Positions 2,328 through 30,860 of a stretch of DNA of 64,000 nt are shown here, in pieces; within the stretch, counting starts at the first letter, position 1; every line of letters begins with the position of its first letter. Origin of the DNA: Escherichia coli (GTDB lineage Bacteria; Pseudomonadota; Gammaproteobacteria; Enterobacterales; Enterobacteriaceae); the NCBI RefSeq assembly GCF_011045215.1, contig NZ_CP049201.1; one strand, given 5' to 3'. The translations under genes and the position numbers were made by a program. Below the pieces are notes generated by a model that did not search any database, was not told the origin of the DNA, and was given only the letters and a program-made list of their open reading frames with translations.

Positions 2328-3731
2328 ATGGGTAAGTTCAAATTTCCCTCCGCATATACCATTCTCTTTTTTCTGATTGCCATCGTTGCCGTCCTGACGT
2401 GGATCATTCCAGCCGGGCAGTATCACATGGCAATGAACGAAGCTCTCGGCAAGGAGGTTCCTGTTGCCGGCACCTATGCACACGTAGAGGCCAATCCGCA
2501 GGGACTGATTTCAGTGCTGATGGCCCCAATTGCCGGGTTGTATGATCCAGACTCCGGTCAGGCTAGGGCGATAGACGTTGCGCTGTTTATTCTGATCATC
2601 GGAGGATTCCTCGGGATCGTCACCAAAACCGGGGCCATTGACGCCGGAATCGAGCGCGTCACCACCCGACTACGTGGTCGCGAAGAGTGGATGATCCCGA
2701 TCCTTATGGCGCTGTTTGCTGCTGGCGGTACAATTTACGGCATGGCCGAAGAATCCCTGCCGTTTTATACCCTGCTGGTGCCGGTGATGTTGGCAGCACG
2801 CTTCGACCCTGTGGTAGCCGCCTCCACCGTGCTGCTCGGCGCCGGGATCGGCACGCTCGGTTCCACCATTAACCCTTTCGCGACGGTGATCGCCGCCAAT
2901 GCAGCCGGGATCCCCTTCACCAACGGTATCACCTTGCGTGTGGTGGTGCTTGTCATCGGCTGGATAATCTGCGTGACATGGGTGATGCGCTATGCCCGGA
3001 AAGTTCGCAAGGAGCCGTCTCTCTCCATTATTGCGGATAAACAAGAGGAGAACCTCGCCCACTTCCTCGGCAATAAAAGCGAACAGGCTCTGGAGTTCAC
3101 CCCGGTACGCAAAATTATTCTGGTGATTTTCGCCCTTACCTTCGCGGTCATGATCTACGGCGTGGCGGTGCTGGGTTGGTGGATGGCGGAGATCTCAACG
3201 GTATTTCTGGCCAGCGCAATTATCATCGGCCTGATCGCCCGCATGAGCGAAGAGGAACTGACCTCTACCTTTATCAACGGCGCGCGAGATTTGCTGGGCG
3301 TTGCACTGATTATCGGTATCGCGCGCGGTATCGTAGTGATCATGGATAAAGGTATGATTACCCATACTATTTTGCACTACGCCGAGGGAATGGTTACTGG
3401 ATTATCGACAGTAGCATTCATCAACGTGATGTATTGGCTGGAAGTGGTGCTGTCGTTTCTTGTGCCTTCTTCGTCCGGTCTGGCCGTTCTGACGATGCCG
3501 ATCATGGCACCTCTTGCCGACTTCGCTAACGTCAACCGCGACCTGGTAGTTACGGCTTACCAGTCTGCGTCCGGTATCGTTAACCTGATCACTCCCACCT
3601 CTGCCGTTGTGATGGGCGGACTGGCTATCGCCCACGTGCCTTACGTGCGATATCTGAAATGGGTTGCGCCGCTGCTTGGGATATTAACAGTGGTAATTAT
3701 GGTGGCATTAAGTCTGGGGGCATTGTTGTAA
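2328..3731 (+). CDS. YfcC-family polytopic membrane transporter (putative arginine/ornithine exchanger of the ADI operon)
   Basis: 467 aa, multiple hydrophobic helices, Gly/Ala-rich segments; positioned between OTC and the ArgR-like regulator. Confidence 0.75.
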   Translation: MGKFKFPSAYTILFFLIAIVAVLTWIIPAGQYHMAMNEALGKEVPVAGTYAHVEANPQGLISVLMAPIAGLYDPDSGQARAIDVALFILIIGGFLGIVTKTGAIDAGIERVTTRLRGREEWMIPILMALFAAGGTIYGMAEESLPFYTLLVPVMLAARFDPVVAASTVLLGAGIGTLGSTINPFATVIAANAAGIPFTNGITLRVVVLVIGWIICVTWVMRYARKVRKEPSLSIIADKQEENLAHFLGNKSEQALEFTPVRKIILVIFALTFAVMIYGVAVLGWWMAEISTVFLASAIIIGLIARMSEEELTSTFINGARDLLGVALIIGIARGIVVIMDKGMITHTILHYAEGMVTGLSTVAFINVMYWLEVVLSFLVPSSSGLAVLTMPIMAPLADFANVNRDLVVTAYQSASGIVNLITPTSAVVMGGLAIAHVPYVRYLKWVAPLLGILTVVIMVALSLGALL

Positions 3732-3811
3732 TTTGCCGGATGGCGCTGCCCCTATCCGGTCTACGGAATGGTGTGGTGTCACCGGTTATTTCGAGAACTG
3801 AATATAGGATT

Positions 3812-4291
3812 ATGATGGATTACGAAGATTTCTCTCCCAAAGAGCAACTACAGCTAACGGTCTGCCAACGTCTGATTGCAGAAAAGAGCTATTTTTCCCA
3901 AGAGGAGCTCCGCCGCGACTTACAGGAGCGTGGTTTTGAGACAATCAGCCAGTCCACCGTTTCTCGTCTGCTCAAGTTGTTAGGTGTCATAAAAATTCGA
4001 AATGCCAAAGGGCTAAAAGTCTATTCGCAGAATCCACAGTTGCGTCCGGCTCCTGATGCCGCGCGCACTGTGTCCGAAATGGTGGTGAGCGTTGAGCACA
4101 ATAGAGAATTTATCCTTATCCATACCGTTGCTGGATATGGCCGCGCAGTGGCACGTGTCCTTGATTATCACCAGTTGCCAGAAATTTTAGGCGTGGTGGC
4201 CGGAAGCAGTATCGTCTGGGTCGCTCCTCGGATGGTGAAGCGTGTCGCTCTGGTGCATAAGCAAATTAATTATTTACTAAGAACGTATTAA
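3812..4291 (+). CDS. ArgR-family arginine repressor-like regulator
   Basis: About 159 aa from the ATG at 3812 (the ORF-track start at 3659 is probably too far upstream); resembles ArgR in the N-terminal winged-helix (...SQSTVSRLLKLLGVIKIRNAKG...) and C-terminal oligomerisation region. Confidence 0.78.
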   Translation: MMDYEDFSPKEQLQLTVCQRLIAEKSYFSQEELRRDLQERGFETISQSTVSRLLKLLGVIKIRNAKGLKVYSQNPQLRPAPDAARTVSEMVVSVEHNREFILIHTVAGYGRAVARVLDYHQLPEILGVVAGSSIVWVAPRMVKRVALVHKQINYLLRTY

Positions 4292-4484
4292 TATTCACAA
4301 ATGCCCGCTTGTATTGACTAATACATACATTAAATCGCTTCATTCGCAAAGCGAGTTTCCTATAATGCCTGATAATGTGCCAGGAGGGAGCATAGTCAAG
4401 CGTGTACGATATAACGTCTCACCGCGTCTGAAATCAGACACTGGCTTGGTGTTTTATTCCCGTTGCTTAATCTATTCCTTGGGT

Positions 4485-4508
4485 CCCTCATTTGAGGGGC
4501 TTTTTTTG
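4485..4508 (+). terminator. Intrinsic terminator (GC stem ccctc/gaggg plus T7 run)
   Basis: Hairpin 4485-4498 followed by tttttttg; ends either the arc operon read-through or a short transcript starting near 4370. Confidence 0.5.
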
Positions 4509-4528
4509 CTCGGCATCAGGAGATAAAC

Positions 4529-4678
4529 ATGAATCCGTTTTATCAAAAAATAAATGCCCCTAGCCGCGAAGTGCTGGAGCTCGTTCTAAAAATCGCAGCA
4601 AAAATTGAAAACCATTCCTCAACCATCGCGGCGTTCGTATGCGCCGCCAATGATGCGCCCGAAAACGCGTCAATATGA
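4529..4678 (+). CDS. Small hypothetical ORF (49 aa) whose 3' end lies in a 63-bp repeat
   Basis: ATG at 4529 preceded by AGGAGA; translation MNPFYQKINAPSREVLELVLKIAAKIENHSSTIAAFVCAANDAPENASI; the last 14 codons recur at 4955-5017. Confidence 0.25.
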   Translation: MNPFYQKINAPSREVLELVLKIAAKIENHSSTIAAFVCAANDAPENASI

Positions 4679-5043
4679 GTTCGCCGGAATATTACTCTGC
4701 TGTCGGGAGTTGAACGCCTGACGACAGGAAATGAGCCAGGCCAGCCACCACGCGGGCTGACAGCGAATCAGAACCTGAGTCAGCCCGGAGCCATTCCCGG
4801 GGCTGCACTTCATCACCTGCCACCAGTACCCGTGTCAGTACTTCGCGACCTGACGCAATTATCCGACTCAGTCCTTCAGAACCCGCCTCCGATACCAGCC
4901 TGGCGCTCGCCCCTGCGCAAGCAAAATAAATCAACCATTGTCAGACTGCGATCATTCGTATGCACCGCCGATGACGCGCCCGAAAACGCGTCAATATGAG
5001 TTCGCCGGAATATTACTCAATATGAGTTCGCCGGAATATTACG
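4634..5043. repeat. Direct repeats: 63-bp unit at 4634-4696 and 4955-5017; 26-bp subunit (caatatgagttcgccggaatattac) in three copies at 4671-4696, 4992-5017, 5018-5043
   Basis: Read directly from the sequence; lies between the ADI operon and the cdiI terminator. Confidence 0.8.
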
Positions 5044-5065
5044 CCTAGCTGGGGGTTTTCTGTGC

Positions 5066-5096
5066 ACAAAAAAATCCCGGCATAATGGCCGGGATT
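5066..5096 (-). terminator. Intrinsic terminator of the cdi operon (minus strand)
   Basis: Palindrome atcccggc...gccgggat followed on the minus strand by a T7 run, just downstream of the cdiI stop. Confidence 0.6.
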
Positions 5097-5110
5097 TGCG
5101 AGCTTTCCCA

Positions 5111-5485
5111 CTATTTCTTGATTCCTAAACGGAACATATCAGTTGGGAATAAAGGTTGTATTATCACTTCATCATTAAAAATGAATAATTTGGGCGATAA
5201 AGCTGTTACGTCATAGATATTTTCAGCGATTAATCTTAGATTTGACCTAAAAACTGGAATACTTGCATCATCTACAAAGACAAACATGTCATCGTTTTTT
5301 ACAGAGTTTGCACACAATAGCTCATCAAAACTCTCATAATCAGAATGCCAGATCTCTGACCAAGTAACACTTCCTTTCGCGAGAGGGTACTTATTTAAAA
5401 TGCCCAGAGCCTCCTGCTGAGCCAGCCCCTCTACTATATTAAAATCAGCACTCAGTGCTTCCCGACACTCATCAAATAAAGTCAT
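5111..5485 (-). CDS. cdiI: CdiI immunity protein (cognate to the CdiA-CT encoded at 5494-6246)
   Basis: 124-aa acidic protein starting 5 nt after the cdiA stop codon; position and size typical of cdiI. Confidence 0.75.
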   Translation of the reverse strand: MTLFDECREALSADFNIVEGLAQQEALGILNKYPLAKGSVTWSEIWHSDYESFDELLCANSVKNDDMFVFVDDASIPVFRSNLRLIAENIYDVTALSPKLFIFNDEVIIQPLFPTDMFRLGIKK

Positions 5486-5490
5486 TTGCT

Positions 5491-8400
5491 CTACCTGTTT
5501 AGCTGTTTCAATATTGTTTCAAAAGACTTTTCATTGCCTTCAAAAGGTATGACTTGCTTCACCGCTTTTCCAGGGCCTTTACCCTGCGAGTAATCCCATA
5601 TATTGATGTGTGTGCCTTTTTCAGGATCATAATCAACACGCCAACCAACTTTTCCGTCGCTGGATTGCCGCCCTATGACTTTCCCATTACCAGCGCTGAC
5701 TTCCAAACGTCCGATAACTGGCTTAGAGTCCGCTCCTAAATTACCTACAAGATCCAATGCCTTGTTTCGAGCAGTTTCCCAGTTTTTCTCTGGCTTGAGG
5801 ATTTGTTCAATTTTAGGCTGGGAATTCCCTTTAACCTTACTAATTCCCCCAAATGCTGACGCCGCAGCGCTCGCGACTATTCCCGCCTGAACTTCATCCA
5901 AACCGTATTCTTCTTGGAGTGCTTCCGAGACTTTGTTGGTCGCGACAACCCCTTCAGCCTGCATTTGCTGCGCAAAAGTCGCCGTCAGATCGTAGACCAT
6001 TTTGATCGGGATATCTTCACCCAGAGCACGATCTATTGCCTGCTTCACCGCCAGACTGTCAGTCAGTACATCACCGTATTTCTGCTGGCAGGTTGCCGGG
6101 CTGGCTGCACAGTCACTGATCAGTTGCTTTTGCTGTGCCGTACTCAACTCTTCGTACTTTTTGATAATACCGCCGCAGTCACCGCCTTTCGCCTGACAGG
6201 ACTTCATTTCAGCGGACCAAGCATCTATCTGCTTACTGCTCAGATAGTTATTCTCAACAGTTGTCTTACCTGACTGTGCGCCGGCTACCGCTGAAGCCCC
6301 CGAGTCTCCCACCAGACCACCGGCCAGGCCGGCAGCAACCGTTGCCAGTGTCGAGACCGTCTGCTTCTCTGTCTCGCTCAGTTCACTCACCGGCTTACCG
6401 TACATCTGTGTGGCTATCATTCCCACCACCTCGCCGGTGGCTGCACCTGCAGCACCGGCAAGGGCATTCTTACCCTGTGCCAGAGACAGGGCGGCATTCA
6501 CTACTGCATGAGCTGCCACACGCCCCGCACCGTCCGGGGTGGTCTGTTTGATAATTTCAGCAATATACGGCGCTGCACCACCTGCCAGGGCTGCACTCAG
6601 ATTACCGCCGGCCAGTCCCTGTACCGCTGCCGTTGCGGCCTGTATCGCCTGCTGGTATTTGCCTCCCGTTCCAAAACCGGAGGCTGCCATACCGTTATTG
6701 TAGGCCCGCTGTGCCACATCCTGTTCCGTGTACGGTTTTCCTGCTGCCTCAAGCTCTGCGCGGGCCTGATTCAGTGCTGCCGGGTCCCGCTTCGCTTTCT
6801 CACCGGCTATCTGTCCTTCCGTTCTGGCAATATCTGCCACCTGGTTACCAATCTCACCAATGAGTTGCGCCTGCTGCAACCGCTGCTGCTCTTTTTCCCT
6901 GTCAAAGATGGGGGACAGCGTCTGGTTTGCATGCGCAACGTCACGGTTCAGGTCTGCCACATCCTGTTTCTGGCTCTGTGTATCCCGGATAGTGATATTC
7001 CCGGCAGACACAGCCGACTGCGTGGTACTGTCCGCATGGCCTTCATGATTTGCACCGACCAGCAGATTGTTTGCCATGTTCCCCAGGAAATTTCCGGCAA
7101 CACTGCCACCGGTACTGAGCCCTGCACTCTGATGTTCCGTTTTAAAGTCAGCCCGGTTTTCAGTGTCACTGAAGCCCAGTGTGCCGGTATCCAGCCTGTT
7201 TTTATCTGCCGTTGCCGTGGACGCAATCACCGCACCGTTCAGTTGCGTATGCTGTCCGGTGGTGACATCAAACCCGCCCCTGCCGGCAAAAATCCCCGTC
7301 TGCTCCTGTACACTGTCGTAGTTACTGTGCATTTTATCCCGGCTGAGGTTCACACTCGCCGAACCGCTCATGGACCCGAAAGTGAAGCTGCCTCCGGCGC
7401 TGGCATTCTGCTGCTTACTGTCATAACGGTCACTGTCCTGCTCACTGGTCAGTGTCAGATGACGACCGGCATCCACTTTCACCGTTTCACCGCCAGCCTG
7501 CGCGCCGGTAAGCGTGGTGTCCCGCCCGCTGATAATGGTCAGCCGGTTTCCCGCATCCACCGTGGTTTCTGTATGGGTGGTACCGTTGCCTTTTTCACTG
7601 CCCTTACCCTGGTTTGCGCTGGCTGACAGACTGAAACCAGGCCCTCCGGGCCCCACACCGATACCGACACCCACGCTGCCACCACTGGATGTGTTCTTTC
7701 CTTCCAGCTTTGACGTGTTTTCTGCTGATACCAGATTCACGTCACGGTTTGCCTGCAGCAGAACGTTGTTCCCGGCCTTTATCTGACCGCCCTGTATCGT
7801 CAGGTCACCATCCACGCCCTTCACGCCGGAGCCGGTGGCCTGAATACTGAGGTTATTACCTGCGGTCAGTGTACTGCCCTTCGCCACCGTCTGCTCTGAC
7901 TGCTGTTCTGATTTCGAAGACTGGCTGCCGTAAGAGAGGCTGATACCCACGGTATTGTTATTCTCTTTCTGGTTGCCCTGTGCTTCTGCCAGTCGTCCGG
8001 CCTGCACGGCCTGAGCCCCCGAGAGCGCGGCCTTCACCCCCTGCAGGGCTTCAAGCCGGCTGTTTCCGGCAGATTTCGCCGCCTGTACGGTCTCCACCGT
8101 CGTGTTCAGGGCGCTGCCCGCTGTGCCGGACAGGGCAAGCGTCAGACCGGAGGTTTTCTGCTCCACCGTATGTGTCTGCACATGCCGGTCAGTGGCGGCG
8201 GTAATGCTGACCTCCTTACCACTGAGTGCCATGTCCCTGCCGGCAATCAGGTCAGAGCCGTTGACGGTCAACCGGTTACCTGCCTGAAGGGAAACATCAC
8301 CGTGAACACTCCCCACCGTGCTGCCTTTCTGCGTGGTGTCTGTTGCGGTGTCCGTGACCTTCAGACTCTGGCTGCCCACGCTGAATCCCACACCTCCGGA

Positions 8401-23240: not shown

Positions 23241-24692
23241 TCAGAGGTCAAAGTTAGGTGCGACACACAACGTTTTTCCCTCAATAACCGGTACAACTCT
23301 GTTTTGTTCATACAGTAAATCCAGTAACCAGTTGATTTTATCCTTTTTCCGGAAACGGTTCGGGCCACGCTGTAAAATGTCATTTTTTTTCATACAGAGG
23401 ATCCCCTTCTCAATGCAATAGCTTTTTATCCAGTTGAAAAGTTCAAGCTCCTCTGGAATGAGTCGCACAGGTACGGTCAGGGCGGAGTTGTCAAAAGTTA
23501 ACGGATTAGACAACCGCACATACTCATTACCGTACCATATTGCTAATTCTCTCGCCATTTCTGCAGTGTAAGGGGAAATCTCCCCCTCTTCACCGCTCGA
23601 ATGGTAAATAAGTCCTGCCAGTCTTGCCATATACTCTGCATTTTTAGCAGCATATTCCCGGCAATGTCTTAAAGGCCCCAATCCCCCCAGCTTCGATTCC
23701 ACATCATTGTAATAATCCGTCCAGATTCTGGCAGCCTGAGGAGAAAAGTGAAGGCAACGTCGTTCACCACTCATCGCCAGACTTTCATCAATAAGCTCAT
23801 TGATCCTCTCTTCAAACAAATCCTGATACTGTGATGAATAATTATCTCCGGTTATTATCCTTGTCCCCTGCGTTGATGTTGGTTGACACATCAAAAACCT
23901 TGCATGATGTCCTGACGTTTTCACAAGTTCTTTTTTTCGCGTACAAAAACCTTTGTGGTAAACATCAGGCTGAATCATCACCGATATCGTCAGTCTTGGC
24001 TCCTTCAAATTAATTCCGGGAGATGATTTCCTGTCGATGAAAAGAGAACCTCCATCCCACAAAGTGTTAATAATTCCCAGTTTACTCATGGCCCGGCTGT
24101 CAAAAATTACCCCCCCTTCACTGGATACAAGAGCAAAAGAGCGATTGCTATCAGAGTAATATTTTAACATTCCCTCTATCGTTGTCTCATTAAAAATTGT
24201 TCGACGTATCTGCGGCGGAACAGGAGATTTATTCAGATGCGTTTCAAGCTCTGATTCTGTTGCCTTGTAATCTTTACCGGCACGAATCTCTTTATGAAAT
24301 TTTGATTCCAGCGCTTTTTGTTTTTGCTCCCATATTTCCTTTTCTGTACTGTAATTCTCAACCAGTTTCGCGTATTCTTCCGCCAGGGCTTCATCCCTGA
24401 GATAAAATGCTTTCATAAACACTTTATCCACGGTCGTTTTCCTTTCACCGGAATCAGCCAGAATCAGAGAGTAAAGATTAACAGGCCCATGTAAATTTCC
24501 AGGTCTGCACACGTCAATCTGATTCTGACAGGCAATTGAGATCGCTGTTAATGCGGATGTTGCCACCATAGCCAAAGGTGCCTGTGTATTTTTTTGAGTT
24601 TCAATTATTGCATTTCTCACCAGCGGTGGTAGTGCATATATCGGATAAGGATTTTCTGGTGCAAGTAAGCACATAAAAGCCTCTCTTTTCAT
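23241..24692 (-). CDS. DUF3987-domain protein (YfjI-like, primase C-terminal-like)
   Basis: 483 aa; sits downstream of alpA as yfjI does in CP4-57. Confidence 0.6.
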   Translation of the reverse strand: MKREAFMCLLAPENPYPIYALPPLVRNAIIETQKNTQAPLAMVATSALTAISIACQNQIDVCRPGNLHGPVNLYSLILADSGERKTTVDKVFMKAFYLRDEALAEEYAKLVENYSTEKEIWEQKQKALESKFHKEIRAGKDYKATESELETHLNKSPVPPQIRRTIFNETTIEGMLKYYSDSNRSFALVSSEGGVIFDSRAMSKLGIINTLWDGGSLFIDRKSSPGINLKEPRLTISVMIQPDVYHKGFCTRKKELVKTSGHHARFLMCQPTSTQGTRIITGDNYSSQYQDLFEERINELIDESLAMSGERRCLHFSPQAARIWTDYYNDVESKLGGLGPLRHCREYAAKNAEYMARLAGLIYHSSGEEGEISPYTAEMARELAIWYGNEYVRLSNPLTFDNSALTVPVRLIPEELELFNWIKSYCIEKGILCMKKNDILQRGPNRFRKKDKINWLLDLLYEQNRVVPVIEGKTLCVAPNFDL

Positions 24693-24892
24693 TAATGGGT
24701 TAGTAAAATAGCAGCAACTCCCGCTACAATAGCGAAAATAGCTGCTATTCAGACCTGATGCTCTGAGAAATACTGAGCATTTGTAGATCTGATGTTTAAT
24801 AAACCGATAAGGTTAATTCAGTGCAGACTGTATTATTTACCACGAAATATCATTCATATTTCTCATTCTTAATACCTCCAGAAATTATTTCA

Positions 24893-25090
24893 CTAATACC
24901 TTTCCCCCGGTCTTTTCCCTTTCTCCAGAACCATAGTGTAAATATTAACGGCCCCACGTAAATTTCCGGGGCTGCATACGTCAACCTGATTCTGACAGGC
25001 AATTGACATCGCTGTTAATACTGACATTGCAACCAGAGTCAGAGGTACTTGTTTATTGTATTGAGCTTTAATTATTGCCTTCCCTATCAT
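24893..25090 (-). pseudogene. Duplicated 5' fragment of the DUF3987 gene
   Basis: 65-aa ORF (…TLVAMSVLTAMSIACQNQVDVCSPGNLRGAVNIY…) paralogous to the N-terminus of the 483-aa protein (…LAMVATSALTAISIACQNQIDVCRPGNLHGPVNLY…); flanking DNA is also duplicated. Confidence 0.5.
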
Positions 25091-25316
25091 TGATGGTCAC
25101 GTATATACTGAATACGGCATATCCGGTTTGATGTAAGACATAAATGCTTCCTTTTTCGTAATACGTTTCGGTTATAGCAGCAATTACCGCTACAATAGCG
25201 ACAATAGCTGCTCTTTCAACAATGAATGCTGGAAATTCTGTTTATCAATTAAACTTCTGGCTAAATTGTTCTTATGCTTCTTTTTCCTCCTGAGGTGATC
25301 ACGTGATGACAAAAAC

Positions 25317-28730: not shown

Positions 28731-29933
28731 TTATTTATTCACAATTTGAGACATCACATAATCCGCCCATGCCTGCATCATCGGTACACGCTGCTCCAGT
28801 AGATCAGTGCGATGATATGCCGCCTCAACCTTATTTTTCAGCGTATGAGCGAGCGCCCTTTCCGCCAGATCCCGCGAATACCCCTGTTCACTACACCAGT
28901 CCCTGAATGTTGAGCGAAAACCATGTGCCGTGGCAACTCGCCCCGGAATGTCACTGACGGCTTTCTTTTTACGCAGAAAACTTGTCAACACCATATCGGA
29001 AAGGATCTGCTGCTTTCTGGGTGAAGGGAACACCAGTTCATCATGCAGGCCACGTATATTTTCCAGAATGTAAATAGCCTGCCGGGATAAAGGAACACGA
29101 TGCTGTAGCCTAGCTTTCATTCTTTCTGCAGGTATAGTCCATACCCGCTTATGAAAATCAATTTCAGCCCAGCGCATTCCCCTGGCTTCGCCCGAGCGAG
29201 TTGCTGTAAGTATCACCATTAATAACAGTGCGCGGGTAACATTATAAGGTTCATCACTATACACACTGGTCGCCACAAAAAGCGGTAACTGCCTCCAGGG
29301 CATTGCGGGTTGGTGTTCATCACGTCCTCTTGTCTGCTGAGGAAGCAAATGGTCAACCACATCAACAGGATTTGCCACACAAAAACCGTGCGCCCATCCC
29401 CACTGCATAACAACATGAATGCGCTGTTTAACCCGGCTTGCCGTTTCTGACAAGGTTAACCAGACTGGACGCAATGTTTCTGCCACGTCCGCAGCCGTAA
29501 TCGAATCCAGCGTTTTTGCTCCCAGTTGAGGAAACGCGTAATTCTCAAGCGTCGATAACCACTGCCTTACATGCTTTGGATTTTCCCATCCAGGAGACAG
29601 TTCTGCATGTACACGCCTGGCTGCATCGGCAAATGTTGGGATAACGACTTTCTCAGATTCAGCCTTTTTAATCTCCAGAGGATCATCACCTGCAGCAAGT
29701 TGCTCTCGCATTATCCGGGCAGTACGTGCAGCTTCAGCAATACTGACCTCTGGGTAAGTTCCCAATCCAGCATTACGTCTTTTTTGTGTCACCGGACTTA
29801 CATAACGAAAAACCCATTTCCCCCGCCCCTTTACTGAAGAAGGATGAAGGGTCAGTCCGGTAATTCCCCCATGGGGCAATGGTTTGTCATCAGGTTTGAT
29901 ATGTCTTGCTTTCGTATCCGTCAATACTGCCAT
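28731..29933 (-). CDS. int: P4-type (tyrosine recombinase) phage integrase
   Basis: 400 aa; N-terminus MAVLTDTKARHIKP...; C-terminal catalytic region with HGFRST...; ends ...LAHT...AYHRTD...RVPMMQAWADYV, conserved in P4-family integrases. Confidence 0.9.
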   Translation of the reverse strand: MAVLTDTKARHIKPDDKPLPHGGITGLTLHPSSVKGRGKWVFRYVSPVTQKRRNAGLGTYPEVSIAEAARTARIMREQLAAGDDPLEIKKAESEKVVIPTFADAARRVHAELSPGWENPKHVRQWLSTLENYAFPQLGAKTLDSITAADVAETLRPVWLTLSETASRVKQRIHVVMQWGWAHGFCVANPVDVVDHLLPQQTRGRDEHQPAMPWRQLPLFVATSVYSDEPYNVTRALLLMVILTATRSGEARGMRWAEIDFHKRVWTIPAERMKARLQHRVPLSRQAIYILENIRGLHDELVFPSPRKQQILSDMVLTSFLRKKKAVSDIPGRVATAHGFRSTFRDWCSEQGYSRDLAERALAHTLKNKVEAAYHRTDLLEQRVPMMQAWADYVMSQIVNK

Positions 29934-30149
29934 ACGCTAATTCCCGTCACTCTGGTATGCCATCCAGTATGCCATTAGTCTCTCGCTTCACTAAGAATAC
30001 ATTAGATAATATCGGACAACAAAAAGTGTAATACATTGTTTATAATGAAATTATATAACACCCCTGGATTAAGTCAGATTTATTTCAGGCGGTCCCCCTC
30101 ACCGCCATATTTAAATAAATATCCTCCGGCATAGCCGGAGGTTTTTCAA

Positions 30150-30860
30150 ATGCGCCTATAAGGCTCTCTTACCAGCCGCGCCCTAACAGGCGCACACGAT
30201 CTGACATTTGCATCCAACTTCGTTACTTACGGCCCGTAAACGGGCTGCCCGGATAGGGAATCGATAACTGCTCTCCCATTTCATCCTCTTCAAGCTGGTG
30301 CTTTATGTAATCCTGTATCTTCGCCGTGTTCTTACCCACCGTATCGACGTAGTACCCTCTGCACCAGAACTCCCTGTTCCTGTATTTGAATTTCAAATCC
30401 CCAAACTGCTCATAAAGCATCAGACTGCTTTTCCCTTTCAGATATCCCATAAAGCCGGATACGCTCATTTTGGGCGGGATCTCCACAAGCATATGGATAT
30501 GATCTGCACAGCATTCAGCTTCAAGAATCCGTACGCTTTTCCACTCACACAGCTTTCTCAAAATACTGCCTATTGCTCTACGCTTCTCTCTGTAGAACAC
30601 TTGTCTTCGGTATTTTGGCGCAAAAACTATGTGATATTTACAGTTCCATCGGGTGTGCGCTAAGCTCTTTTCGTTCCCCATTGGGACCCCCTTTTGATTT
30701 CTTGTTTGACACTTGCAGTTGCCAGACCGCAAGGTGTTTTAACAAATCAAAAGGGGTTTTAATAACTGGCTCAAAGCTGAAAGCTTTCCGGAACCCCCAG
30801 CCTAGCTGGGGGTTTTCTGTGCACAAGAAGAGCCCGTACGAAAGTACGGGCTTTTTTTTC
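30150..30860 (-). mobile_element. IS200 element (ends approximate)
   Basis: tnpA flanked by palindromes (acggcccgtaaacgggctgcc at about 30232; gcccgtacgaaagtacgggc plus T8 at 30831-30858); boundaries not determined. Confidence 0.5.
30223..30684 (-). CDS. tnpA: IS200 transposase TnpA (IS200/IS605 family Y1 HuH transposase)
   Basis: MGNEKSLAHTRWNCKYHIVFAPKYRR...HIHMLVEIPP...YY motifs; near-identical to IS200 TnpA as recalled; start taken at Met17 of the 169-aa ORF. Confidence 0.85.
   Translation of the reverse strand, partial: PMGNEKSLAHTRWNCKYHIVFAPKYRRQVFYREKRRAIGSILRKLCEWKSVRILEAECCADHIHMLVEIPPKMSVSGFMGYLKGKSSLMLYEQFGDLKFKYRNREFWCRGYYVDTVGKNTAKIQDYIKHQLEEDEMGEQLSIPYPGSPFTGRK

Follow-up and report, generated by a model that had tools for sequence, protein, structure and literature searches.

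Probable junction of two acquired island blocks downstream of cdiI in Escherichia coli, with stacked IS66-family and IS200 ends

Introduction

The window analysed in this study, a stretch of 64,000 nucleotides placed in Escherichia coli by megablast, carries a cdi locus whose genes (cdiI, cdiA and cdiB, on the minus strand) face a block of plus-strand genes encoding arcA, arcC, argF, a YfcC-family carrier and an ArgR-family repressor. Between the two lies a short region with direct repeats, a GC-rich segment and a 49-aa open reading frame, and the question raised by this locus is whether these mark the boundary of an island, the remnant of an orphan toxin-immunity module, a small gene or the debris of another element. 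We consider it highly probable that the region is a non-functional junction of two horizontally acquired E. coli island blocks, at which the ends of mobile elements have been stacked. On the basis of sequence comparisons, every base of 4290-5100 can be assigned to a pyrL′/pyrB′ relic, IS66-family ends, an IS200 tip or a terminator. The features are as follows.

4290-4631: promoter, leader and attenuator of pyrL plus the first ~100 nt of pyrB, read as a foreign second copy
4361..4366, plus strand: -10 box (TATAAT) of a pyrBI-type promoter, aligning with TATAATGCC of K-12, Enterobacter and Salmonella
4392..4526, plus strand: pyrL-like leader frame of 44 codons (Pfam PyrBI_leader, RefSeq annotation, alignment)
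4481..4509, plus strand: pyrBI attenuator, a G+C hairpin and T run (terminator scan), homologous to K-12 CCCCTCAATCGAGGGGCTTTTTTTT
4529..4631, plus strand: 5′ stub of a xenologous pyrB, the aspartate carbamoyltransferase catalytic chain (DNA alignments, BLASTP)
4529..4678, plus strand: chimeric 49-aa ORF, running from the pyrB stub into IS sequence (ORF list; ATG start)
4634..4695, plus strand: IS66-family right end, fragment 1, the last 62 bp including the right inverted repeat (57/63 against pRK1)
4696..5016, plus strand: IS66-family right end, fragment 2, the last 321 bp, comprising the tail after tnpC and the right inverted repeat (311/322)
5017..5042, plus strand: IS66-family right end, fragment 3, a terminal 26-bp stub (26/26 against the IS tip)
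5043..5067, minus strand: IS200 terminal 25 bp, the end upstream of tnpA (25/25 against the intact IS200)
5072..5097, minus strand: cdiI intrinsic terminator, a two-way hairpin with a 10-bp stem, six G-C pairs and a T run
5111..5485, minus strand: cdiI, CDI immunity gene (ORF list; 'CDI toxin immunity protein' in RefSeq for mip270_05)
30114..30824, minus strand: intact IS200, origin of the second 27-mer (711-bp insertion relative to RM12761; Y1_Tnp)

Results and Discussion

The repeats downstream of cdiI correspond to IS66-family right ends

The initial annotation had described a 63-bp sequence occurring twice and a terminal 26-mer occurring three times. A repeat search recovered both long copies where they had been placed (4634-4697 and 4955-5018), but as a 95% match with three mismatches rather than an exact repeat, together with a third, overlapping repeat register at 4981-5044. 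Likewise, the 26-mer held for its first two copies but not for the third, which deviates at the last base. The exact common unit is the 25-mer CAATATGAGTTCGCCGGAATATTAC, present at 4671-4695, 4992-5016 and 5018-5042 (three observed versus zero expected from 100 shuffles), and no fourth copy with up to three mismatches was found on either strand of the 64-kb window.

Matches to positions 4634-5042 were found in 410 plasmids and ~640 E. coli records, where they fall at the 3′ ends of intact IS66-family elements, and in annotated records the tnpA-tnpB-tnpC genes of IS66-family elements lie immediately upstream of the matching segment. As a reference we took the 2,773-bp element of E. coli W plasmid pRK1 (NC_017637.1 83399-86171), which is bounded by imperfect inverted repeats (GTAATGTTCCGG.../GTAATATTCCGG...) and encodes proteins matching the Pfam families TnpB_IS66 (120 bits), DDE_Tnp_IS66 (304 bits), zf-IS66, LZ_Tnp_IS66 and DDE_Tnp_IS66_C. 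The left inverted repeat of the pRK1 element reads GTAATGTTCCGGGGAACTCATCTTCAC, and the reverse complement of the 25-mer shared by its right end and the window reads GTAATATTCCGGCGAACTCATATTG; the terminal inverted repeats thus begin with 5′-GTAA on the outward strand, a start that is typical of the IS66 family. Target duplications of 8 bp were found for the copies in pRK1 (GTTTTCTG), pRHB23-C14_3 (CACATAAC) and pCFSAN004179G (CAGTCGTC).

Aligned with the right end of the pRK1 element, the three window fragments of 62, 321 and 26 bp showed 90.5%, 96.6% and 100% identity, respectively, and fragment 2 was also aligned with three intact copies. All three run in one direction and terminate at the inverted-repeat tip ...GGAATATTAC; the last of them (5017-5042) repeats the terminal 26 bp perfectly and in tandem. 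We therefore read the 25-mer as the right inverted repeat of the element, and the previously noted GC-rich spacer as its 3′ non-coding tail: the GC content of 4697-4954 is indeed raised (0.589, or 0.58-0.61 when taken in 150-nt windows, compared with an overall 0.472 for the 64 kb), but the segment, which also includes the start of fragment 2, belongs to the same IS that carries the repeats and is no spacer. The earlier suggestion that the repeats do not resemble cdiA and may derive from some other element or from recombination agrees well with their identification as terminal fragments of an IS66-family element.

In contrast to an intact IS66-family element, the window holds fragments of a family member and no element as such. 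Only right ends are present; no tnpA-tnpB-tnpC genes or DDE_Tnp_IS66 transposase were found in the region, and no left inverted repeat of the element was found anywhere in the 64-kb window. As no left end remains, nothing at 4634-5042 can transpose.

Another repeat was observed elsewhere in the window, where a direct repeat of ~466 bp with 74-75% identity (24458-25215) duplicates the 5′ end of a 483-aa gene on the minus strand (23241-24692) and has left a 65-aa pseudo-copy of that gene at 24893-25090.

A foreign pyrL-pyrB relic precedes the IS66-family fragments

Alignment showed that positions 4290-4631 are collinear throughout with pyrL-pyrB of K-12. The features in common are those expected of this locus in the Enterobacteriaceae: the -10 box within TATAATGCC, the 44-codon leader frame, the attenuator hairpin and T run, a ribosome-binding site, the ATG and the first pyrB codons, NP(F/L)YQK...SR..L.LVL..AAK. 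The Shine-Dalgarno sequence CAGGAGATAAA is identical to the ribosome-binding site of K-12 pyrB. The leader scored 29.7 bits against Pfam PyrBI_leader (cut-off 25) and 24.8 bits against the NCBIfam equivalog PRK10224 (cut-off 61), and in strains SCU-176 and mip270_05 it carries the RefSeq name 'pyrBI operon leader peptide'. The canonical leader start at 4392-4394 is ATA, where the aligned Enterobacter, Salmonella and K-12 sequences have ATG, and RefSeq starts the leader instead at 4365, within the -10 box of the promoter. The pyrL-like leader is thus homologous to the known one but is probably no longer a working leader: it is likely to be untranslatable, as part of a pyrL′B′ relic that is probably decaying.

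The pyrB portion is similarly damaged. It shares 16 of 30 residues with residues 3-32 of K-12 PyrB (BLASTP, E 1e-5) and is nearest to the Enterobacter type in a three-way alignment with K-12, Enterobacter asburiae and Salmonella, from which a 12-nt deletion (four codons) and a 1-nt insertion causing a frameshift near 4604 could be recognised. Homology to pyrB ends at ~4631, after ~100 nt or ~33 codons, and searches of the 49-aa ORF against Pfam, NCBIfam and PDB detected neither of the domains, OTCace_N and OTCace, that characterise a PyrB of ~310 aa. What remains of pyrB in the window is best described as a gene fragment. Compared with the pyrBI operon of Enterobacteriaceae, the window copy is a second and foreign one, located in an island, with an ATA leader start, a cut and frameshifted pyrB and no pyrI.

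The exact breakpoint between pyrB′ and the IS is ambiguous by ~15 nt, since a 10-mer at 4619-4628 (TCAACCATCG) fits both sides: it is pyrB-like (GCAACCAGAGC in K-12) and is also an exact match to the IS, 26 bp upstream of the homologous start of fragment 1. This 10-mer may have served as microhomology when a deletion brought pyrB′ and the IS together.

By tracing relatives of the adjacent repressor to their contigs, we found that Enterobacter asburiae (repressor 92% identical) and Salmonella enterica carry a native arcA-arcC-argF-dcuC/yfcC-argR-pyrL-pyrB-pyrI-ridA stretch. This synteny shows that the arcA-arcC-argF-yfcC-argR-pyrL′-pyrB′ block of the window was captured from the chromosome of a donor resembling Enterobacter or Salmonella, with the cut falling within pyrB.

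The 49-aa ORF is probably a pseudo-ORF

The ORF at 4529-4678 exists as the initial annotation had reported, and its Shine-Dalgarno sequence is good because it is the old ribosome-binding site of pyrB; it does not, however, appear to be an independent gene. We judge it to be a non-functional chimera that starts in the pyrB stub and ends in the IS tail. An A-run indel in its IS-derived part changes its length from strain to strain (85 aa in SCU-176 and 61 aa in mip270_05, compared with 49 aa here), and it had zero matches in Pfam, NCBIfam and PDB. The other small ORFs of the region likewise had no matches in these three databases, apart from the pyrL leader.

A genuine gene for a small protein at this position, possibly responsive to pyrimidines via the surviving pyrBI promoter and attenuator, would account for the strong ribosome-binding site and ATG, for the apparently intact -10 box and attenuator upstream, and for the 'hypothetical protein' annotated here in RefSeq. 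We regard this as very unlikely, given that the C-terminal half of the ORF is IS sequence, that the indel sets its length by strain, that the pyrB-derived part has suffered both the four-codon deletion and the frameshift, that the pyrL leader has lost its own start codon, and that no family or structure matches were obtained. The RefSeq 'hypothetical protein' entries WP_057698441.1 and WP_029402540.1 are better interpreted as a pseudogene stub of pyrB that continues into IS sequence.

The 27-mer at 5043 is the tip of an IS200

The 27-mer at 5043-5069, reported as a junction, does recur in direct orientation at 30800-30826. Further comparison identified positions 30114-30824 as a 711-bp insertion relative to strain RM12761, whose empty site fixes the boundaries of the inserted element. 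The insertion encodes a Y1 transposase (Pfam Y1_Tnp, E 3.8e-38, 30223-30681) that is named 'IS200C family transposase' by RefSeq in strain GF4-3. Both this transposase and the presence/absence polymorphism that defines its ends place the insertion in the IS200/IS605 group. Positions 5043-5067 are identical to bases 687-711 of this intact IS200 (25/25), and include half of the end-proximal hairpin CCCCCAGC-TAG-GCTGGGGG, whose loop is interrupted at 5043 by the tip of the IS66-family element. Both IS200 copies abut an intrinsic terminator, but in contrast to the intact copy only 25 bp are left at 5043, the remainder presumably having been displaced or deleted after the IS66-family insertion.

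We also observed that the intact IS200 is flanked by a tyrosine recombinase gene (28731-29933) and ycdU and directly adjoins a terminator hairpin, and that the truncated tip at 5043 abuts the terminator hairpin of cdiI in the same relative orientation.

A direct 27-mer repeat, further direct repeats and a tyrosine recombinase gene within the same window might be taken for the attachment-site scars of an integrative island carrying cdiBAI. This is extremely improbable, as 30800-30824 is the tip of an IS200 that encodes its own Y1 transposase and is absent from the otherwise identical RM12761 site, and as the repeated 25-mer, being the tip of an IS66-family inverted repeat, has unrelated flanks in plasmids. 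The 27-mer was also considered as an attachment site whose core should occur once in the empty site, and this candidate was rejected: the RM12761 empty site lacks the IS200 25-mer altogether. The recurrence of the 27-mer therefore reflects an IS200 tip and neither an island boundary nor an att site, and this direct repeat is unsuitable for delimiting the cdi island. In addition, a tRNA scan of the window found zero tRNAs, so the island is not tRNA-anchored within the window.

Orphan cdiA-CT/cdiI remnants are common downstream of cdiI, and the position of the region, as well as the presence of VENN pre-toxin fragments and IS66 fragments near the cdi loci of related strains, would be compatible with such a remnant here. 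We give this explanation next to no credence, since 4290-5100 is wholly assigned to the pyrL′/pyrB′ relic, the IS66-family ends, the IS200 tip and the terminator, and the ORFs on both strands of 4529-5100 had zero Pfam matches. A search of 3600-5600 against Rfam gave only two sub-threshold matches, both of them terminator-like parts of sRNA models matching the cdiI terminator hairpin. The region is thus without an orphan cdi module, an att site, a new RNA family or a credible small protein, and its explanation as stacked ends of known elements is an ordinary one, the IS66-family element itself being already known.

Related strains carry different states of the junction

The full arrangement of the window was found only in strains mip270_05 and mip270_22. 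The first of these is collinear with the window only around 4300-5110, with cdiA and the rest of the island differing. The junction between pyrB′ and the 62-bp IS fragment is more widespread, being common to 51 E. coli genomes. Some of these lack cdiA and cdiI, which means that the repeats do not mark the insertion boundary of the cdi locus, as had been proposed for examination by BLASTN.

In E. coli 1303 and several O111 strains an intact IS66-family element abuts the same IS200 25-mer, terminator and cdiI, a state that looks like the precursor of the 26-bp stub in the window. The intact element next to cdiI in 1303 was also seen to lack an 8-bp target duplication (left flank CGAACTTAT, right flank GCCTAGCT, at 1040-1060 and 3789-3800 of the compared segment), which points to recombination or an adjacent deletion there too.

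These intact elements offer a potential source of transposase, and with the right inverted repeats of the window being intact, the three ends could in principle be a non-autonomous, MITE-like derivative still movable by an IS66-family transposase. We find this scarcely believable: all the ends point one way, the left inverted repeat is missing across the 64-kb window, and the exact arrangement occurs at a single locus only, in mip270_05 and mip270_22. Inert fragments remain the preferred reading.

A third state is represented by SCU-176-type genomes, in which an 18-bp stub comes after the pyrB′/IS junction; beyond it lie another IS66-type element, represented by its left end and a truncated tnpA, and a truncated cdiA. 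In this lineage an IS-associated deletion took most of cdiA together with cdiI. Because the two lineages do not have the same sequence to the right of the 62-bp fragment (the 321-bp fragment in the window, the 18-bp stub and another IS66-type left end in SCU-176), one or more additional recombinations between IS ends are needed to explain the distribution. In all, 32 genomes were observed to have the pyrB′/IS junction followed by a different IS66-type left end and truncated tnpA fused to a 5′ cdiA fragment; in SCU-176 this segment occupies 5416-5790 of the compared segment.

A proposed history of the junction

From the states described above we infer an order of events that is not provable. 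In the first step, an IS200 would have inserted beside the cdiI terminator. A copy of the IS66-family element would then have entered the IS200 hairpin, giving the state that survives intact in strain 1303. Next, additional copies of the element would have inserted into the resident one in the same direction, at distances of 26 bp and 321 bp from its right tip, and homologous recombination could have reduced each direct pair to a single element with a terminal stub. Finally, a deletion reaching from pyrB′ to 62 bp from the element tip would have taken out the transposase genes.

Tandem right-end stubs and possible self-targeting

Tandem duplications of the right end, in which a short stub follows a longer right terminus, were found in four states.

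26-bp stub: window, 4992-5042, tandem right-end duplication
28-bp stub: Z1323CEC0017, 4298-4349 of the compared segment, tandem right-end duplication
23-bp stub: pCFSAN004179G, 2257-2303 of the compared segment, tandem right-end duplication
18-bp stub: SCU-176, 5369-5415 of the compared segment, tandem right-end duplication

Each duplication stops exactly at the IS tip, where the transposase cleaves. The stubs were surveyed by BLAST with synthetic junctions, using random spacers, stub lengths of 12-60 and both IS ends. Among 5,426 E. coli genomes only these four stub states were found (in 32, 1, 2 and 1 records), with no left-end stubs, and the same approach gave no additional case in PLSDB. 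Exact-pattern scans of metagenome contigs and of contigs from species-representative genomes detected zero tandem right ends. In pCFSAN004179G the 8-bp duplication CAGTCGTC encloses the element and the stub as one unit, so that the stub is either the original end of the resident copy or has moved together with the element.

One explanation of this pattern is that the IS66-family element prefers to insert, in direct orientation, in the last 18-28 bp of a resident right inverted repeat, and that recombination then collapses the tandem. We put this forward tentatively and think it somewhat unlikely; the sample comprises four or five events, of which three of five lie at cdiI-proximal loci and are possibly related. 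Under such self-targeting, the 321-bp fragment of the window would count as one more such event, the fifth. Insertion targeted to inverted repeats has been described for IS30, IS911 and IS21-type elements, and the present case resembles these in that new copies have seemingly landed in or beside a resident end, leaving abutted or tandem ends. It differs from them in that the stubs are of the right end only and in direct orientation, and in being represented by four or five natural events. A full-text search of the literature found no description of end targeting by the IS66 family, or of this locus.

Significance

Taken alone, the result matters little, removing one candidate small gene and one candidate island boundary from consideration. 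For the island as a whole, it indicates that the arc block and the cdi locus were probably stitched together by the activity of IS66-family and IS200 elements. The pattern of right-end stubs, if confirmed, would reveal a target preference in an IS family about which little has been established.
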